A DNA stretch of 64,000 bases from Coprobacillus sp. (GTDB lineage: Bacteria > Bacillota_I > Bacilli_A > RFN20 > CAG-826), in NCBI GenBank assembly GCA_021203905.1, contig JAJQAG010000004.1, positions 129,939 to 193,938 on the forward strand. Direction: 5' to 3'. Shown here piece by piece: positions 22,064 to 30,030 of this stretch (positions within the stretch are counted from its first letter, which is position 1; every line of letters begins with the position of its first letter). Both the position numbers and the translations under genes were made by a program. The notes beneath the pieces were generated by a model that worked only from the letters and a program-made list of their open reading frames with translations, was not told where the DNA came from and did no database searches.

Positions 22064-22886
22064 GAGAGGTCTTCTCCTCTATGGTTTCTTTAGTTGGGGT
22101 CTCTACGGGGGCGACTACAACGTCCTCAACCTTTTCTTCTTCTTTTGGATTTGTGGATTCCTCTCCATGTATTAAAGCGTCCATCTGAGCTTGATGAAGC
22201 GCCACTTCGCTCTTAGCTTTCTCTTCTTTCTCTTTCTTACTTTGTTTTCCGTCCCAGACAAAGAGCCAAATGATAAGCATAATCACTCCGACGACTAAGC
22301 AGGCATCCGCCCAGTTAAAAGTGGGGAACTCATAATTTCCAAAGTGGAAAGCAATCCAATCAATCACTCCACGAGTGCTCCCACTGACACCTAAATAGGA
22401 GGAAGTATAGAAGGCTCGATCAATCAGGTTTCCAATACAGCCCGCAAGAATAATCATGCAACAAGCTCTCGCAAATTTGGGAATCTTTTTATATTTGACT
22501 GCAAAAACAGTAATGATTACTACTGCGGCAATAACACTAATACCAACAAAAACAATGATATTTGCAGTGTAATTACCAGTATCTATTCCAAAAGCCATCC
22601 CATCATTGATGACATATTTTACCCCAAGGAAGTTATTAATAAGCCAGATCTCTTCGCCTTCACTGCTATAGTAGTAAGGAACATAGTCCTTAATTAAAGT
22701 TTTGGTGACGATATCGATAATAAACATCAAAACGAAGAGCCAAATAAAAGACTCGAAGATCCACTTCCAAGTAGCATCCCATTTAGGATGTTTCTTGACA
22801 GTAGCGGTTACTTCTTGTTCGGAAACCTGTGCGCTCTCTACGGGTGTGGTTTCAATAGGAGTTTCTTCCTTGACTTTCTTTGGCAT
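22044..22886 (-). CDS. lspA: lipoprotein signal peptidase II with long terminal extensions
   Basis: The core has LspA motifs (NxGxAFG-like NDGMAFG, and IGNLIDR). I chose the start at ATG 22886, which overlaps the ileS stop (TAATG). There is an acidic/Lys-rich N-terminal extension of about 45 aa and a C-terminal extension of about 80 aa. Confidence 0.88.
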   Translation of the reverse strand: MPKKVKEETPIETTPVESAQVSEQEVTATVKKHPKWDATWKWIFESFIWLFVLMFIIDIVTKTLIKDYVPYYYSSEGEEIWLINNFLGVKYVINDGMAFGIDTGNYTANIIVFVGISVIAAVVIITVFAVKYKKIPKFARACCMIILAGCIGNLIDRAFYTSSYLGVSGSTRGVIDWIAFHFGNYEFPTFNWADACLVVGVIMLIIWLFVWDGKQSKKEKEEKAKSEVALHQAQMDALIHGEESTNPKEEEKVEDVVVAPVETPTKETIEEKTSRGKSKS

Positions 22887-25621
22887 TACTTTTTCTCCAT
22901 GAGATGATGACATCTTGGGCAAAGATATGAATCTTTCTCTACCTCTATGGCGTCATAATCATAGTTCCAACATCTCTCACAATAGTGTCCACTATGACGA
23001 TGGACATCAATGATTGAGTGGTTATATTCATCTCCTTTAATTTCTTCTTTATAGATATTAAATCCGGAGACGACAAAGAGATTCTTTAAATCTTCTTTGT
23101 TTATTTTATCAAATAAGTGGGAAATATTTACATCTTTTATGAAAATATTTACTTCCGCTTCTTGACTAGAACCAATAGTTCCTTTTTCTCTCTCCACTTC
23201 AAGTGCCTTTAAGACTTCACTTCTTAAAGCCTTAAAGAGTTCGTATTCCAAGAGAAGAGCGTCATCCACTTCCCCCTCTTTTGGAAAGTCGAGCAATTGG
23301 ACATATTCCTCTCTTTTCCCAGGAAGATTCTTATTAAATTCGTCCATGGTGAAAGGAAGAATAGGATTAAGTAATCTTAAGATAGATTCTGAGACGAGAT
23401 ACATCACTGATTGCATCTGGTTCCTTCTCTTTGAATCTTTTTCATCACAATATAAAGTGTCTTTAGCAATATCTAGATAGAAGGAAGATAAATCACTAGA
23501 AAGGAAAGTCGTAATATAACTCATTCCGTTCGCGTAGTTATATTCATCAAAACTCTTTCTCACTTCTCTCTCGACATAGTGTAAACGATTAAGGATATAG
23601 GTATCCACAAGGGTAAAATCACTAGTAGTATTCTTGGGATCAAAGTCCACAAGATTCCACGACATAAACTTTAAAGTATTACGGATTTTACGATAGACTT
23701 CACTTACTTGTTTAATGATATCTTCACTCATTCTCACATCGCTTTGATAGTCGATTGTCCCGCAGTAAAGACGAACGACATCGCTACCATACATATCTAT
23801 CACTTTAAGTGGGTCAGTACCATTACCTTTAGACTTAGACATCTTCTCCCATTTTTCATCCATGATAAACCCATGGGTGACCACGGCATCATAGGGGGCG
23901 TGACCATAGACTGCGGTCGAGATAATAAGGGAAGAATTAAACCATCCACGATACTGATCGCTCCCTTCTAAGTAGAGATTTGCGGGGAAATTTAAACCTT
24001 TATCGACGATATTGTACATAAAGGAAGAACCACTATCAAACCACACATCCATGATATCGACTTCCTTAGTAAATATCCCGTGGGGAGAATGAGAATTTTT
24101 ATAGCCTTTAGGGAGTAAATCTATCGGGTCTTTTTCATACCATACATTTGACCCATTTTCTCTCACTAATTTAATAATATTATCAAAGACTTCTTTCTCA
24201 ATAATGGGAGTCTTATCTTCACAGTAAATAATGGGGATAGGAACACCCCACGCTCTCTGACGAGAGATACACCAATCGCTACGATCTTTAATCATATTGA
24301 CCATTCTTACTTCTCCCCAACTTGGGTACCATTTTACCTTATGAATTTCATTTAGAAGCTTCTCTCTAATGGGTTCAATTGAGCAGAACCATTGATCCGT
24401 CGCTCTAAAGATTAAAGGTTTATTAGTTCGCCAATCATGAGGATAGGAGTGAATAAAGGTTTCATGTTTTAAAAGATGTTGATTCTTCGCGAGAATATCA
24501 AGAACGACATCATTTCCTTTCTCGTAGAATAAACCACTTAACTCTGCTCCGACACTCTCATCAAAATATCCCTTCTCATCCACTGGGCAATAAGGTTCAA
24601 TCCCATATTTTTGACAGACAATAAAATCATCCACACCATGTCCACCAGCGGTATGGACAAATCCCGTTCCAGCGTCATCGGTAACATGAGTTCCAAGAAT
24701 AATGGGAACTACTCTCTCATAGAAAGGATGAGAACATTTAACAAGTTCCACTTCTTTTCCCTTAAATTCCCGAATGAGTTTCACATCTTTAAGATTAAGT
24801 TCATTCACTAATTTATCTTTTAGAGAAGTAAGGAAGGCTAAGTTTCCTCTGTTTGTACAATACACTCCATAAGTAAAATCTGGATGAGCGGATATCGCCA
24901 TATTTGCAGGTAAGGTCCATGGGGTGGTGGTCCAAATAACCACTTGATCACCTTTGTTTAAGATGCCATTTCCTTCAATGACATCAAAGGCCACATAGAT
25001 AGAGTGGCTTTCAACATCTTTATATTCAATCTCTGCTTCTGCTAAAGCGCTTTCACTACTCGGGGACCAATAGACAGGCTTAAGGCCTTTATAGATAAGA
25101 CCATCAAGCGCCATCTTGGCGAAACACTCTAGCTGGCTAGCTTCGTATTCTTTTAAAAGGGTGAGATAAGGTTTCTTAAAATCTCCCACGACTCCTAAAC
25201 GTTGGATTTCTTCTTTTTGTCTTTCCACTTGCTCCAAAGCATAGTCTTTACATTGGTCACGGAACTGGACAATAGGTGTGGTCTTTCGATTGATTCCCAT
25301 CGCTGTGACTTTATTTTCAATAGGGAGACCATGGGTATCCCAACCAAAGACAAAGGGTGTTTGATAACCACACATATTCTTATAACGGATGGTGATATCT
25401 TTAAGCACTCGATTAAGCATATGCCCACAGTGCATATCTCCGTTAGCGTAGGGCGGTCCATCATGGAGAGTGTACTCTGGACACTCTTTTCTTTTCTCCA
25501 TCATTAAAGAGTAGAGATCCTCATCTAACCACTTCTTGATAAGAACTGGTTCTTTAGAAGGGAGGTTTCCTCTCATCTCAAAATTACTTTTATTCATCAG
25601 TAAGGTGTCTTTATAATCCAT
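22886..25621 (-). CDS. ileS: isoleucine--tRNA ligase
   Basis: 911 aa with a HIGH-type motif (PYANGDMHCGH), KMSKS, and C-terminal Cys clusters (CERC...CPRC). A T-box lies upstream. Confidence 0.98.
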   Translation of the reverse strand: MDYKDTLLMNKSNFEMRGNLPSKEPVLIKKWLDEDLYSLMMEKRKECPEYTLHDGPPYANGDMHCGHMLNRVLKDITIRYKNMCGYQTPFVFGWDTHGLPIENKVTAMGINRKTTPIVQFRDQCKDYALEQVERQKEEIQRLGVVGDFKKPYLTLLKEYEASQLECFAKMALDGLIYKGLKPVYWSPSSESALAEAEIEYKDVESHSIYVAFDVIEGNGILNKGDQVVIWTTTPWTLPANMAISAHPDFTYGVYCTNRGNLAFLTSLKDKLVNELNLKDVKLIREFKGKEVELVKCSHPFYERVVPIILGTHVTDDAGTGFVHTAGGHGVDDFIVCQKYGIEPYCPVDEKGYFDESVGAELSGLFYEKGNDVVLDILAKNQHLLKHETFIHSYPHDWRTNKPLIFRATDQWFCSIEPIREKLLNEIHKVKWYPSWGEVRMVNMIKDRSDWCISRQRAWGVPIPIIYCEDKTPIIEKEVFDNIIKLVRENGSNVWYEKDPIDLLPKGYKNSHSPHGIFTKEVDIMDVWFDSGSSFMYNIVDKGLNFPANLYLEGSDQYRGWFNSSLIISTAVYGHAPYDAVVTHGFIMDEKWEKMSKSKGNGTDPLKVIDMYGSDVVRLYCGTIDYQSDVRMSEDIIKQVSEVYRKIRNTLKFMSWNLVDFDPKNTTSDFTLVDTYILNRLHYVEREVRKSFDEYNYANGMSYITTFLSSDLSSFYLDIAKDTLYCDEKDSKRRNQMQSVMYLVSESILRLLNPILPFTMDEFNKNLPGKREEYVQLLDFPKEGEVDDALLLEYELFKALRSEVLKALEVEREKGTIGSSQEAEVNIFIKDVNISHLFDKINKEDLKNLFVVSGFNIYKEEIKGDEYNHSIIDVHRHSGHYCERCWNYDYDAIEVEKDSYLCPRCHHLMEKK

Positions 25622-25912
25622 ACTCTCTCCTTAAAAAGAAATAAAAAGCATCCATATCTAAGGACGCTTTCGCGCGGTACCACCTTAGTTCTAGAGAACC
25701 CTCTCTAGCGCTTCATTAGCCTAATAACGTTTAGAAAACGGAGACTTACTCTTAGTTCAGTACTCATAAGAAGGAGTGATATCTATACATCTCTTTCTTG
25801 TTGACCTTTCCATCCACTGCCAACTCGCTGTAAGGGGGTGATATATAAACTTGTCTCCTAATTGCTTACTAACAAGCAAGATTATTATAGAAATAAAGTT
25901 TCTATAACGCAA
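25622..25912 (-). promoter_or_regulatory. T-box riboswitch leader of ileS with its promoter
   Basis: Promoter is TTGCGT (25912-25907), 17 nt, TATAAT (25889-25884). The T-box AACTAAGGTGGTACCGCGCG lies at 25690-25671, with a terminator AAGCGTCC...GGATGCTT plus TTTTATTT. ATC followed by A in the stem I region is the candidate Ile specifier. Confidence 0.9.
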
Positions 25913-25924
25913 GGAAGTTTATAA

Positions 25925-26392
25925 ATAGTATTAGACAGACTATGCTCTAATATCGATAAGTATGTTCCACTTTTAAGCAACTATTTTGCAGTGGCAACCC
26001 CAGATTACAGAACTTATCAAGATATGAACGATAATGTAATCCGTTACAACACTTACAGGAATCGATGGATTGGTGCGTATCTACAAGAACGGGGAATCAA
26101 AGTCATTCCAACCATTGGGTGGGGTAGTAAGCAAACCTTTAAGTATGCCTTTTCCGGGGTGGAAAAAGGAAGTGTCGTGATTGTCTCCACAATTGGTTGC
26201 CAAAAAGTTAAGAAAGATTTTATAAGGGGGTATAACAAGATGCGAAAAGTTATTAAACCATCGATAGTTATCGTTTATGGGAAACTAATCCCAGGAATAA
26301 AAGGCAAAATCATAAATTTTGCTTATGAAGACGCATTTTTAGGACATGATATATCCAATCATATCGAAAATATCAAAAAGGGGGTAAAATAA
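25925..26392 (+). pseudogene. 5'-truncated DUF4417-like gene remnant
   Basis: The frame is open from the stop at 25922-25924. ..PDYRTYQDMNDNVIRYNTYRNRWIGAYLQERGIKVIPTIGW..GSVVIVSTIG matches my recollection of the DUF4417 core (PDFS..Y..YRNRW..G..VIPT). There is no ATG and no SD; only a GTG at 25991. The N-terminal part of the family is missing. Confidence 0.55.
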
Positions 26393-26394
26393 AC

Positions 26395-26805
26395 ATGGGT
26401 GGACGAGGAGCATTTGCCGATTCTAACAATCAAAATTTCACCTTTGTTGAAGGTGGCCAAACTTACCGAACAATTAAAAAATATAAAGGGTTTGAAACAA
26501 TCGAAAAAATTGATCAAACCAAAAATACTGCTATCCCTTTTTATTCCCATTCTGGAAGCAACATATATGTAGTAGTCCAACAGAATAAGATTAAAAATAT
26601 AACAGTGTACGGAGAAAACCACAATGTAGTTACAAGTATTGATTTTTACAAAAAGCACCACGGAGTGATTCCCCATACGCATCCTCATGGGATTCATACA
26701 AATGATGGACCCGGAATCCCACCAACAGAAGAAGAATGGAAGTTGATACGATACATCAAAAAGAAAACGAGGTTAAAATGTTTCAATGATCAAAGCACCA
26801 ATTAA
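26395..26805 (+). CDS. small His-rich protein, possible orphan toxin module (136 aa)
   Basis: The ATG is preceded by AAGGGGG. The ORF starts MGGRGAF and contains the His cluster KKHHGVIPHTHPHGIHT. It is followed by two immunity-like paralogues. I could not confirm a family. Confidence 0.5.
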   Translation: MGGRGAFADSNNQNFTFVEGGQTYRTIKKYKGFETIEKIDQTKNTAIPFYSHSGSNIYVVVQQNKIKNITVYGENHNVVTSIDFYKKHHGVIPHTHPHGIHTNDGPGIPPTEEEWKLIRYIKKKTRLKCFNDQSTN

Positions 26806-27283
26806 TTATTATGGCGAATGCAAATCAATTAATATCTTCTATGACTACTACTATCCACTAAAGAGTGTTGAAGATTTTTGCAATGTCTGCATGGTTTTTG
26901 AGTACGATGGTGTCCTCTATCTTCTAGATGAGGAGATGGTGGATCCAGACATATTTCCTAACAATAAAAATGACGGATGCGATTACTCCATGAGAAGAAT
27001 CTACCGCTTGAAGTTACAAGACGACGGAACTTACCAAAGAACTTTACTTGCTACATATAGAACACTAGCAAAAGTCCTCACGGAATGGAAAGTAGACGGT
27101 GTCCCCTTAGAATCCATGTTTGGAATGGACAATATGAGAGTAATCGAAATGTATTCTCGAGAGTATCGAGAAGAAAACACACTAAACTTTAAAGAATATG
27201 CCGAGAGGTATAAGAGAAATAATGAACCAAACGACAAAAAGACCAAAAAACACAAAAAGAAATGGTGGGAAAAATTGCGATGA
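26786..27283 (+). CDS. immunity-like protein, paralogue 1 (165 aa)
   Basis: It overlaps the upstream ORF by 20 nt. It shares about one third of its residues with the next ORF (FY..YY, Y.G..Y...EE, FPN...DG.DY..R..Y.L...DG, LL..YR, W..DG.P) and has a Lys-rich tail. Confidence 0.6.
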   Translation: MIKAPINYYGECKSINIFYDYYYPLKSVEDFCNVCMVFEYDGVLYLLDEEMVDPDIFPNNKNDGCDYSMRRIYRLKLQDDGTYQRTLLATYRTLAKVLTEWKVDGVPLESMFGMDNMRVIEMYSREYREENTLNFKEYAERYKRNNEPNDKKTKKHKKKWWEKLR

Positions 27284-27663
27284 CAGACAATCACTTTGAT
27301 TCACTAGATGAATTCTACAATTTATACTATGAACGCCGCCCTTATCCTGGACCCGATTACATGGATATGGATTTCTATTACAAAGGAAAGTTTTATTGGT
27401 ACATGGAAGAAGGCATCATGAGAGAAGATTTTCCAAATTTATACCACGATGGGGGAGATTATGCCGTTAGAATTGCTTATGAATTGATACCAGAAGATGG
27501 GAAGCCGATGTCGAAAGAAAAGTACGATTTTACAAAGTGCAAGTGTATATTATTAGGAAAATATCGCTTGATGGAGGATATTCTCAATGATTGGATAATC
27601 GATGGGAAGCCATTTAAAGATGTCCTCATTGATAAAGAGACACATATTTACGATATTAGATAG
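27280..27663 (+). CDS. immunity-like protein, paralogue 2 (127 aa)
   Basis: I chose the start at ATG 27280, which overlaps the upstream TGA (ATGA) and has GGTGGG 10 nt upstream; the track start at 27262 is also possible. It is a paralogue of 26786..27283. Confidence 0.6.
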   Translation: MTDNHFDSLDEFYNLYYERRPYPGPDYMDMDFYYKGKFYWYMEEGIMREDFPNLYHDGGDYAVRIAYELIPEDGKPMSKEKYDFTKCKCILLGKYRLMEDILNDWIIDGKPFKDVLIDKETHIYDIR

Positions 27664-27671
27664 TTCCTATT

Positions 27672-27705
27672 AAAAAAAAAGGTGGCTGGGCCACCTTTTA
27701 TTTAT
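27672..27705. terminator. bidirectional terminator (island / ftsZ)
   Basis: Perfect 9-bp stem AAAGGTGGC-TGG-GCCACCTTT (27678-27698), with an A-run upstream and a T-run downstream. It abuts the ftsZ stop codon. Confidence 0.85.
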
Positions 27706-28808
27706 TGTTTCAAGAAAGAGGGGAGAATGTTAGATTTATCTAACTCCTCCTTCTCTTCACTCTTTTCTGGCTCACTCTCTTCAATGGGAGCCTCCTCAAT
27801 AGTAGGACGAGTAATTGGATCCACAAGCAAGGGTTGAGAGAAATCCATCTCTTGTTCAAAGTCCGCGGCAATGACACTGACGATGATTTCATCATCGAGT
27901 TGATCATTAATGCTCACTCCAAACTTGATATCAATATCTCTTCCCGCGGCTTCGATAAGATATCTCACCGTATCTTGAGCATCAAAGAGAGAGACATTAG
28001 TGCCACAAGTCACAGAGACAATGGCGCGTCTTGCTCCAGCAACACTGGCTTCTAGTAAAGGAGAGGAGATGGCGCTTAAAGCGGCGTCTTTTGCCCGATT
28101 AGGTCCTTTTCCATAACCACTACCAATGAGTCCCACTCCAGAATGTTGAAGGGTATTTCTCACATCCGCAAAATCGAGGTTGATAACTGCGGGGAGTAAG
28201 ATGAGATTCACCACTGTCTTCACAGATTGCGATAAGACTTTATCGCTTTCCGCAAAAGCACTAGGAATAGGAATTGTTCCCACATTTCTAAGGAGTTGAT
28301 CGTTAGAGACGACAATAATTGAGTCGACATTTTCTTTAAGTTTATTTAAGCCATCGATGGAGTTATTGATCCTTGTCTGTCCCTCAAAGGTAAAAGGACG
28401 AGTGACAATGGCCACGACTAGCGCACCTGCATCTTTCGCGATACGAGCGACCACCGGAGCGGCGCCTGTACCAGTGCCACCACCCATACCGGCAGCGATA
28501 AAGACAAGATCCGCACCATTAACCATCTCTCTAATGGCGTCAGCGCTCTCTTCTGCGGCTTTTTCTCCGACTTCAGGAACACCCCCGGCTCCTAAGCCTC
28601 CCGTCGTGTTCTCTCCTAAAACTGTCCTATTTGATGCTTTAGAAGAGGAGAGAGCTTGTTTATCAGTATTCAAAACATAGAAGGTGACATTAGCAATTTC
28701 ATCATCAATCATACGATTGACAGCATTGCTTCCTGCTCCCCCCACACCAATGACGACAATTTTGCATGCGGGTTCAAAATTATCTAAGTCATAGTTCCCA
28801 CTAGCCAT
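27702..28808 (-). CDS. ftsZ: cell division protein FtsZ
   Basis: I trimmed the track ORF to ATG 28808 (MASGNYDL...), which is preceded by AAGGAGG. It has GVGGAGSNAV and the tubulin signature GGGTGTGAAP. Confidence 0.97.
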   Translation of the reverse strand: MASGNYDLDNFEPACKIVVIGVGGAGSNAVNRMIDDEIANVTFYVLNTDKQALSSSKASNRTVLGENTTGGLGAGGVPEVGEKAAEESADAIREMVNGADLVFIAAGMGGGTGTGAAPVVARIAKDAGALVVAIVTRPFTFEGQTRINNSIDGLNKLKENVDSIIVVSNDQLLRNVGTIPIPSAFAESDKVLSQSVKTVVNLILLPAVINLDFADVRNTLQHSGVGLIGSGYGKGPNRAKDAALSAISSPLLEASVAGARRAIVSVTCGTNVSLFDAQDTVRYLIEAAGRDIDIKFGVSINDQLDDEIIVSVIAADFEQEMDFSQPLLVDPITRPTIEEAPIEESEPEKSEEKEELDKSNILPSFLKQ

Positions 28809-30030
28809 TGTTACGACCTCCTTTAGAAGATGTACGTGTTCCAGTAGGATTGGCTGCTGGACGAGTATCTTCATAAATATTCTTATATTTAGAGTTTGTT
28901 AAAACTGCTCCTAAGACATTGTAGAGATTGGGTTTTCTCGCTCCTAAACTCGTGGGTACGGGAGTGGTGATATTCTTTGAACTCACTATCGGAGAGAGAT
29001 AGGAGACGAGTCCATTAAGACGGGCTCCACCCCCGATTAAGACCATCGGGAGAGAGCGGTAAAAGTCTTTCTCTTCCTCTTCATAACCCGCGAGTAAGAC
29101 ATCTATCGTCGTATTGAGATGATTGATGAAGGTTTCAAGTTCTTCTTTGACAAGATCATTTAGTTCAGAAGCATAACAGACCTTCCCCTCTTCGCTTGTA
29201 TAGATGGGAACTTGGAAACGCATTTGCTTCTTATCATAGCCATAGAGACATTTAAGCTCTTCGGCTTTTTCCATAGAAACACTAAGATGATGAGCGATAT
29301 GTCTCGTAATACTATTCCCACCCCAGGCAAACTGTTGAGAGGAATATAGCACTCCATCGCCAATAAGAGAAACAGTAGTCATCTCTCCACCGATATCCAC
29401 TAAGAAGTAAGCACTAGGGGTTGTGGGTTGAGTAGCGAGTAGTTCGCAAGCGGCAAAAGGTGCCACTACCATTCGAGAGATAGATAATCCCGCTTCAAGA
29501 ACCGCTCTACGATAACTATCAATAAGAGGGATGGGGAGAGTGTGAAGTTTCGCTCGCATGGTTAGTCCCGTAGAAACTAAACCAATAGGAGGGGTTATAT
29601 ACTCCTTCCCATCATCGACAATGAAGGTGTCAGGGATAATATCCACACAATCATTATTGAGTTCCGCCGGAAATTTATCTTTTCTAATCAAAGCGTATAA
29701 GTTCTTAATATCTATCGTATCGATTCTTCCTTCTGGAGAGACAATCGTCGTGAACTTATCATTGTTAAAGACCACAAGACCATTAGGAGGAAGCACTAAG
29801 ATAACCTCTTGAACGAGGACCGAGATCTTTGCATCAGGATCTTCAAACTTGGTTAAAGAACTAATCTCTTTGACAAGTTTGGCTTTATCAACGATGGAAC
29901 CATTCTCGATGACACCAGAAAGAGGTTTCTCCTTCACATAGATAACATACACTTGTCCTTCATTTTCAAAACCTTCAAGAAGTTTGAGAGATGAATCCGA
30001 AATTTCAAGAACAAAGACAGGTTTTTTCAT
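28801..30030 (-). CDS. ftsA: cell division protein FtsA
   Basis: 409 aa with an actin-like ATPase fold (VDIGGEMTTV, IGGGARL). It lies immediately upstream of ftsZ with an 8-nt overlap. Confidence 0.92.
   Translation of the reverse strand: MKKPVFVLEISDSSLKLLEGFENEGQVYVIYVKEKPLSGVIENGSIVDKAKLVKEISSLTKFEDPDAKISVLVQEVILVLPPNGLVVFNNDKFTTIVSPEGRIDTIDIKNLYALIRKDKFPAELNNDCVDIIPDTFIVDDGKEYITPPIGLVSTGLTMRAKLHTLPIPLIDSYRRAVLEAGLSISRMVVAPFAACELLATQPTTPSAYFLVDIGGEMTTVSLIGDGVLYSSQQFAWGGNSITRHIAHHLSVSMEKAEELKCLYGYDKKQMRFQVPIYTSEEGKVCYASELNDLVKEELETFINHLNTTIDVLLAGYEEEEKDFYRSLPMVLIGGGARLNGLVSYLSPIVSSKNITTPVPTSLGARKPNLYNVLGAVLTNSKYKNIYEDTRPAANPTGTRTSSKGGRNNG

Follow-up and report, generated by a model that had tools for sequence, protein, structure and literature searches.

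The internal proteins of phage T4 are unrelated small proteins that share a short N-terminal capsid-targeting tag, are packed into the head and are injected with the DNA. Mobile modules controlled by XRE and COG2856 (ImmA/IrrE) proteins, and three-component toxin–antitoxin (TA) systems, were reportedly described by Makarova and colleagues in 2009. The MuF polymorphic toxins of temperate phages carry variable toxin cargo, often followed by a small candidate immunity gene (Jamet et al. 2017, PMC5576092). Ntox24, a predicted all-beta toxin domain with conserved Y, H and H residues, has been linked to type VII secretion systems (T7SS) and MuF systems and also to TA-like pairs (Zhang et al. 2012, PMC3482391). 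Here we analyse a 136-amino-acid open reading frame (ORF) and its neighbours in a 64,000-nucleotide stretch of Coprobacillus sp. DNA (contig JAJQAG010000004.1), the whole of which is referred to as the window. Fam is the name used here for the previously uncharacterised and unnamed MGGRG/His-beta family to which this ORF belongs, and O4 denotes the acidic protein family of the two window ORFs downstream of it. We posit, at roughly even confidence, that Fam and O4 constitute an effector–inhibitor pair of phage origin. This kind of system is familiar from phage-borne polymorphic effectors and toxin–immunity pairs; the Fam and O4 families, a five-gene cassette that contains them, and the rule linking the MGGRG leader to the domain DUF4417 appear to be undescribed.

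The ORF has its own ATG and begins MGGRGAF, as the first-pass annotation had recorded, and encodes a basic protein with an isoelectric point (pI) of 9.4; a protein identical to it has been recorded from a metagenome-assembled genome of Coprobacillus sp. A phmmer search of 1.84 billion representative proteins returned 54 Fam relatives, nearly all of 110–139 amino acids, while a profile search of 5.8 billion proteins returned 947 clusters, giving a family of at least that number. The best 120 of these 947 clusters are all about 130 amino acids long and lack any Pfam domain, and some are labelled Caudoviricetes. No closer orthologues were found in the metagenome scan, NCBIfam gave no match, and sequence searches of the PDB with a single Fam sequence and with the Fam profile returned nothing. 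An AlphaFold2 model (pLDDT 75.9, pTM 0.73) consists of seven beta strands and one C-terminal helix, for which Foldseek found only weak matches among the BFVD viral models (best E 0.03).

Conservation was computed on 220 unique Fam sequences and is concentrated at M1, G2, R4, G5, G21, P48, Y58, Y72, D83, H88, H94, H96, H101 and E114. Within the leader R4 is present in 100%, G2 in 99% and G5 in 97% of sequences, and the two tyrosines in 99% (Y58) and 89% (Y72). The histidine cluster KKHHGVIPHTHPHGIHT, residues 86–102, had been described as seven histidines with an x5 spacing; it is real and conserved, and contains six (H88, H89, H94, H96, H98 and H101) arranged HH-x4-HxHxH-x2-H. Four of them, H88, H94, H96 and H101, are conserved at 95–99% (H88 at 99%; H88, H94 and H96 at 97–99%), together with D83 (94%) and an acidic residue at position 114 (E 87%, D 10%), indicating that the cluster is not a product of chance. 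Judged from these patterns, the D83/H88/H94/H96/H101/E114 constellation is a probable metal-binding or active site.

Neither H89 nor H98 is conserved, which bears on the identity first proposed for this protein. The first-pass annotation had taken the HH dipeptide as a sign of a His-Me finger (HNH/EndoVII-fold) toxin, related to the AHH, GHH, WHH, LHH and SHH families. The conserved xHH of those families is lacking in Fam: H88 is present in 99% of sequences, but in most relatives K, N or D stands in place of the second histidine; over the 220 sequences the residue there is mostly K, N, D or R. None of 26 Fam members matches an HNH-type Pfam family, and neither Pfam nor the fold search yielded a beta-beta-alpha-metal fold or an HNH-type model. 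Nor is Fam an orphan C-terminal module of a larger toxin, as had also been suggested. Every relative examined is a stand-alone protein of at most 180 amino acids (54 representatives, 120 profile matches and the ORFs of the fetched loci), no fusion occurs among these representatives and matches or in 28 genome loci, and alignment of the Fam profile with a MuF2 protein gave an hhalign probability of 0.15%, that is, no similarity to MuF toxins with their N-terminal MuF domain. The E...HxH-x7-S-xx-D motif on an MPN fold, characteristic of JAB/JAMM (RadC-like) proteins, is likewise absent from Fam.

The sole recurrent database signal for Fam is Ntox24 (PF15529), the top Pfam match in 7 of the 26 members with a best E of 2.3e-4. 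The match covers the D83-H101...E114 region and scores 18.6 bits for the window protein and 21.7 bits for the family consensus, where the Pfam gathering cut-off is 24. The seven strands, single terminal helix and conserved tyrosines and histidines of Fam agree with the all-beta character and conserved Tyr and His of Ntox24. A distant relationship between the two is plausible on these resemblances, not established. The earlier suggestion of a toxin domain is thus upheld in spirit, this sub-threshold match being its only Pfam echo.

A scan of species-representative genomes, in which neighbouring genes were typed by local hidden Markov models (HMMs), recovered 28 loci with Fam from Lachnospiraceae, Ruminococcus, Selenomonadales, Succinivibrionaceae, Erysipelotrichia and others. 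DUF4417 lies directly 5' of Fam in 24 of the 28, and O4, detected by its HMM, directly 3' in 26, typically with an overlap of 4 bp. Relatives recurrently carry an XRE-type helix-turn-helix (HTH) gene and a Peptidase_M78 (ImmA/IrrE) gene upstream of DUF4417, and the full arrangement is therefore a five-gene cassette, XRE-ImmA(M78)-DUF4417-Fam-O4. Some cassettes adjoin a serine recombinase, MobA/MobL, TnpV/TnpW or VapE, and others have housekeeping neighbours, guaA or ABC transporters for instance. Surroundings as varied as these are the behaviour of accessory cargo on mobile elements.

The two partners are complementary in charge, with a median pI of 9.1–9.8 for Fam and 4.5 for O4, the latter having a net charge of about -11. 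O4 genes also form arrays: Fam-O4-O4-O4 in locus L029, Fam-O4-Fam-O4-O4 in L025, O4-Fam-O4 in L019 and Fam-O4-O4 in the window, where the two O4 ORFs are paralogous as first noted (29% identity, E 4e-12). In three loci (L034, L037 and L038) Fam is 5'-truncated at three different points and an intact O4 stands orphaned beside each remnant; the only truncated O4 occurs in L030, whose Fam has a 35-amino-acid insertion. The original suggestion that the downstream paralogues are immunity genes is supported in spirit by obligate adjacency, by the pairing of an acidic with a basic protein, by tandem arrays and by retention next to truncated Fam. An immunity gene directly downstream is a hallmark of polymorphic toxins, and O4 occupies that position in 26 of 28 chromosomal loci and at none of the phage copies.

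Phage copies of Fam lie in the head and packaging module. On gut phage contigs of about 40 kb the order is TerS, TerL, an SPP1-type portal, a 146-amino-acid protein, Fam, DUF4417, sometimes a 182-amino-acid protein, MuF2 (Phage_min_cap2), scaffold and major capsid. Roseburia phage Jekyll has DUF4417, a 90-amino-acid ORF, Fam and TerL, and Streptococcus pyogenes phage A25 has DUF4417 (gp22), Fam (gp23) and TerS, with gp23 matching the Fam profile at 99.8% probability. The annotated start of A25 gp23 (A25_23; L046 358-768) appears to be set 27 nt downstream of the true one; an ATG farther 5', which has a ribosome-binding site, yields MGGRGASSGMSDKG..., in agreement with the family leader (MGGRGASSG).

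The 146- and 182-amino-acid neighbours of Fam also begin with MGGRG and are otherwise unrelated to it. The leader was therefore counted more widely, by scanning viral contigs with the DUF4417 profile (80 loci) for ORFs of at least 40 amino acids that start [MV]G[GS]RG on the DUF4417 strand. MG[GS]RG-start ORFs were found in 68 of the 80 viral DUF4417 loci, only 22 of which contain Fam. The same count over 130 loci, totalling 961 kb, yielded 135 ORFs of this type, every one on the gene strand and none opposite, while three permuted control motifs gave 0–1 matches per strand and three other controls 0–5. The encoded proteins form at least 19 unrelated cargo clusters; examples of unrelated MG[GS]RG neighbours of DUF4417 are L005 7561-8001, 8001-8393 and 9124-9672, L047-L050 and L051-L136. 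Glycine and arginine codons of the leader vary synonymously across 86 distinct DNA contexts, which indicates selection on the peptide rather than the DNA and excludes a DNA-level recombination site. A purine-rich stretch at -14 to -8 is general among the MGGRG-start genes in these contexts.

Cargo with recognisable functions occurs in actinobacteriophages. After DUF4417, Gordonia phage Strosahl encodes gp2, which matches ADPrib_exo_Tox (E 4e-21), Mycobacterium phage Bugsy encodes gp3, annotated 'VIP2-like ADP-ribosyltransferase toxin', and Isiphiwo encodes gp2, annotated 'metalloprotease'; Crossroads gp121 and an unannotated ORF of mycobacteriophage L5 also follow DUF4417. All five start with MGGRG, and in Strosahl gp2, Bugsy gp3, Isiphiwo gp2 and the L5 ORF the leader is followed by a long Gly-rich linker. 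Several MGGRG cargo proteins have basic C-terminal tails, and two other phages show the variant start MGRGR. MGGRG had initially been read as the linker before a cargo domain in a larger protein; the detached module falls away, and what stands is a conserved leader preceding interchangeable cargo that includes some recognised toxins. A constant N-terminus with variable cargo, as in polymorphic toxins, is thus present, the constant part being a short leader and not a trafficking domain.

Several individual loci add detail to the leader. The L5 ORF, MGGRGSKGGPGPG... (L047 1081-1419), overlaps the end of gp1 (DUF4417) and is in a different frame from the annotated gp2 start at 1305, a discrepancy that could reflect mis-annotation, an old sequencing error or a frameshift. 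The 182-amino-acid cargo (L005 9124-9672; also L008 and L010) has a JAB/RadC-like motif, LHNHPEGVLPVPSLKD, with a Pfam RadC match of E 0.083 only. Phage MM1 ORF29 (L048 3563-4309) has an internal GGGRGA followed by AIHNHPNGSNFSSTD, so that the leader sequence can serve as a linker within a protein as well. In Streptococcus phage Javan241 two unannotated ORFs starting MGGRGA (L135 3063-3416 and 3429-3647) directly follow a DUF4417-containing gene annotated 'DNA modification methylase'.

DUF4417 itself is treated in the literature as an uncharacterised domain, often fused to ParB-CTPase folds in phages; our literature search found no functional account of it, and a search on the MGGRG leader found nothing relevant. 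Searching the PDB with the DUF4417 profile returned spurious matches to PPR repeats alone.

Taken together, Fam would be a stand-alone, basic, beta-rich effector of phage origin with an MGGRG leader and a D-H-HxH-H...E constellation, one of many interchangeable effector domains that phages may encode behind this leader next to DUF4417. Proposed cargoes are ADP-ribosyltransferases, metalloproteases, JAB-like domains and the His-beta domain of Fam. The leader and DUF4417 may load such proteins into the virion for delivery with phage DNA. One Fam lineage would have become established on bacterial chromosomes and mobile elements as a cassette under XRE/ImmA control with O4, the putative cognate inhibitor of a toxic Fam (immunity protein or antitoxin), and the XRE/ImmA pair may switch the operon on under stress or infection. 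A broader extension of this scheme is that MGGRG is a dedicated loading signal and DUF4417 its partner in a hitherto unrecognised, widespread delivery route for interchangeable effectors, with the chromosomal cassettes being domesticated inducible TA or abortive-infection modules. We advance this extension tentatively and think it somewhat unlikely in its entirety; such a route would span phages of Firmicutes and of actinobacteria, the models L5 and A25 among them.

The window carries what would be a 5'-eroded copy of the cassette in which Fam and two O4 genes have been kept. Its features are as follows.

22886..25621, minus strand: ileS, left flank of the island.
25991..26392, plus strand: DUF4417 gene, 5'-truncated, 133 amino acids remaining, beginning at the invariant 'ATPD' motif (Pfam and alignment).
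26380..26384, plus strand: GGGGG ribosome-binding site, 10 nt 5' of the Fam ATG (sequence).
26395..26805, plus strand: Fam ORF, 136 amino acids, ATG start, MGGRGAF... (window sequence).
26395..26409, plus strand: MGGRG leader, M1 G2 G3 R4 G5 (conservation).
26641..26736, plus strand: putative metal-binding or catalytic constellation, D83, H88, H94, H96, H101 and T111-x-x-E114 at a helix start (conservation).
26786..27283, plus strand: O4 paralogue 1, 165 amino acids, candidate inhibitor or immunity protein (paralogy, O4 HMM, dN/dS).
27262..27663, plus strand: O4 paralogue 2, 133 amino acids, pI 4.75, candidate inhibitor or immunity protein.
27677..27699, bidirectional: intrinsic terminator common to the island and the convergent ftsZ, right-hand end of the island.
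27702..28874, minus strand: ftsZ, right flank of the island.

The island occupies positions ~25991 to 27663, flanked by ileS and ftsZ, and begins inside DUF4417. This fragment matches PF14386 (E 3.9e-33) over profile positions 69–176 of 183, and alignment with 15 full-length relatives places the missing N-terminal part at about 110 residues. XRE and Peptidase_M78 genes are absent upstream in the window. The locus is a decayed, phage-derived cassette remnant, its XRE and ImmA genes gone along with ~110 N-terminal residues of DUF4417. The G-rich ribosome-binding site claimed for Fam is borne out, and each O4 ORF overlaps the preceding gene by about 20 nt. O4 paralogue 1 ends in a lineage-specific basic C-terminal tail (..KKTKKHKKKWWEKLR), found elsewhere only in its orthologue in the sister genome and in no other O4 member. 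Outside the island, the long leader 5' of ileS (window 25630-25990) contains a hairpin resembling a terminator (minus strand, 25671-25644), and a search of window positions 25000-28000 against Rfam gave no family, T-box included, at gathering score.

The sister genome, GCA_965325815 (a sister species), has the same island next to ftsZ. Relative to this genome, the ratio of nonsynonymous to synonymous substitution rates (dN/dS) is 0.10 for the C-terminal part of Fam, 0.087 for O4 copy 1 and 0.045 for O4 copy 2, against 0.029 for ftsZ, with dS saturated or >1 and reading frames open in both species. Fam and O4 in the window and the sister are therefore under purifying selection despite the truncated DUF4417.

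Several results weigh against an effector–inhibitor pair. The Ntox24 match stays under the Pfam gathering threshold, comparison of 26 O4 members with Pfam revealed no known immunity family, and PADLOC found nothing. No promoter stands out in the window island and, with DUF4417 truncated as well, expression of the window copy may be poor. A single base pair is deleted from the Fam start in the sister genome, ATGGT (L001 60-80) as compared with ATGGGT in the window (26390-26400), which puts the MGGRG codons out of frame with the ATG and leaves the remaining frame open; either the homopolymer was misassembled or the gene was inactivated recently. O4 is absent from the phage Fam loci examined, so that the universal partner of Fam is DUF4417, an association that also fits an accessory-subunit role.

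Such a role is the main alternative: Fam would be a subunit of the DUF4417 enzyme, accessory or regulatory and without toxicity, for example a substrate-targeting or stabilising beta-sheet partner, and O4 would regulate the two-protein enzyme instead of conferring immunity. The ubiquity of DUF4417, rather than O4, as the neighbour of Fam speaks for this reading. Against it, unrelated proteins, ADP-ribosyltransferase toxins among them, are found in this slot next to DUF4417 and carry the leader too, and the many unrelated occupants of that slot are better explained by a set of cargoes than by one dedicated subunit. Moreover, the window and the sister retain Fam and O4 under purifying selection with DUF4417 truncated, and the fold echoes are below significance. 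We consider a subunit role unlikely, but the strongest of the competing explanations.

Less probable still, in our assessment, is that Fam is a packaging protein without harmful activity, located inside the virion or bound to DNA, and that its histidine cluster is a structural zinc site, with chromosomal copies as prophage debris and O4 as a chaperone. Its location in the head and packaging module, its basic character, the basic tails of several MGGRG cargoes and the Gly/Arg-rich, RGG-like leader are all in keeping with packaging. Prophage debris is, however, difficult to reconcile with cassettes that lie on transposon-like elements or in housekeeping regions and not in prophages, and O4 arrays and orphan O4 beside truncated Fam are unexpected of a chaperone.

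For the window copy specifically, the 5' truncation of the cassette with loss of its regulators, the lack of a clear promoter and the frameshift at the sister's start codon could point to a non-functional relic that is merely slow to decay. All conserved Fam residues are nevertheless intact in this copy, and frames open in both species at dN/dS of ~0.05-0.10, with dS saturated or >1, argue for maintenance; we regard a relic as improbable. The reading of Fam as a metal-dependent nuclease toxin of the His-Me finger (HNH/EndoVII-fold) type, split off from a larger polymorphic toxin, drew on the His-rich motif, the immunity-like genes downstream and the basic protein, but failed every test that could be run, is already contradicted and can be given almost no credence.

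Should Fam and O4 prove to be a toxin and its inhibitor, they would enlarge the list of known conflict systems by a new and abundant pair, represented by hundreds of clusters from gut and rumen bacteria. They would also provide the first functional context for DUF4417, which is present in >500 sequenced phages. The MGGRG leader is the more general lead, a trivial sequence rule that marks candidate phage effectors independently of their family, and it is directly testable in tractable phages such as mycobacteriophage L5 and its cluster A relatives or S. pyogenes A25. For the window, the practical result is a corrected annotation, as a decayed phage-derived cassette and not an HNH nuclease.

Each of the known systems shares some features with the Fam loci and differs in others. 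As in XRE–COG2856 modules, the effector genes of the full Fam cassette come after genes for an HTH repressor and an M78 metalloprotease; the payload, DUF4417-Fam-O4, is in contrast no described TA family, and the window copy is without both regulators. Fam resembles Ntox24 in being beta-rich, in its conserved Y58/Y72 and H88/H94/H96 and in adjoining portal and MuF genes, but is never fused to LXG, WXG, Rhs or MuF, carries the MGGRG leader, has an obligate DUF4417 neighbour, and is paired with an O4 partner that is not Imm50 or Imm53. With MuF toxins it has in common a toxin-like variable cargo in the portal/MuF packaging module that is presumed to be capsid-loaded. Unlike them, Fam is a small protein encoded on its own instead of extending MuF at the C terminus; what stays constant is an N-terminal leader of 5 residues together with the adjoining DUF4417 gene, and the phage copies have no immunity-like gene. 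The tag sequence and phage groups of the T4 internal proteins are unrelated to those described here, and DUF4417 has no T4 counterpart; the two nevertheless have in common a short N-terminal tag on unrelated small proteins, which in the case of MGGRG may likewise direct packaging.
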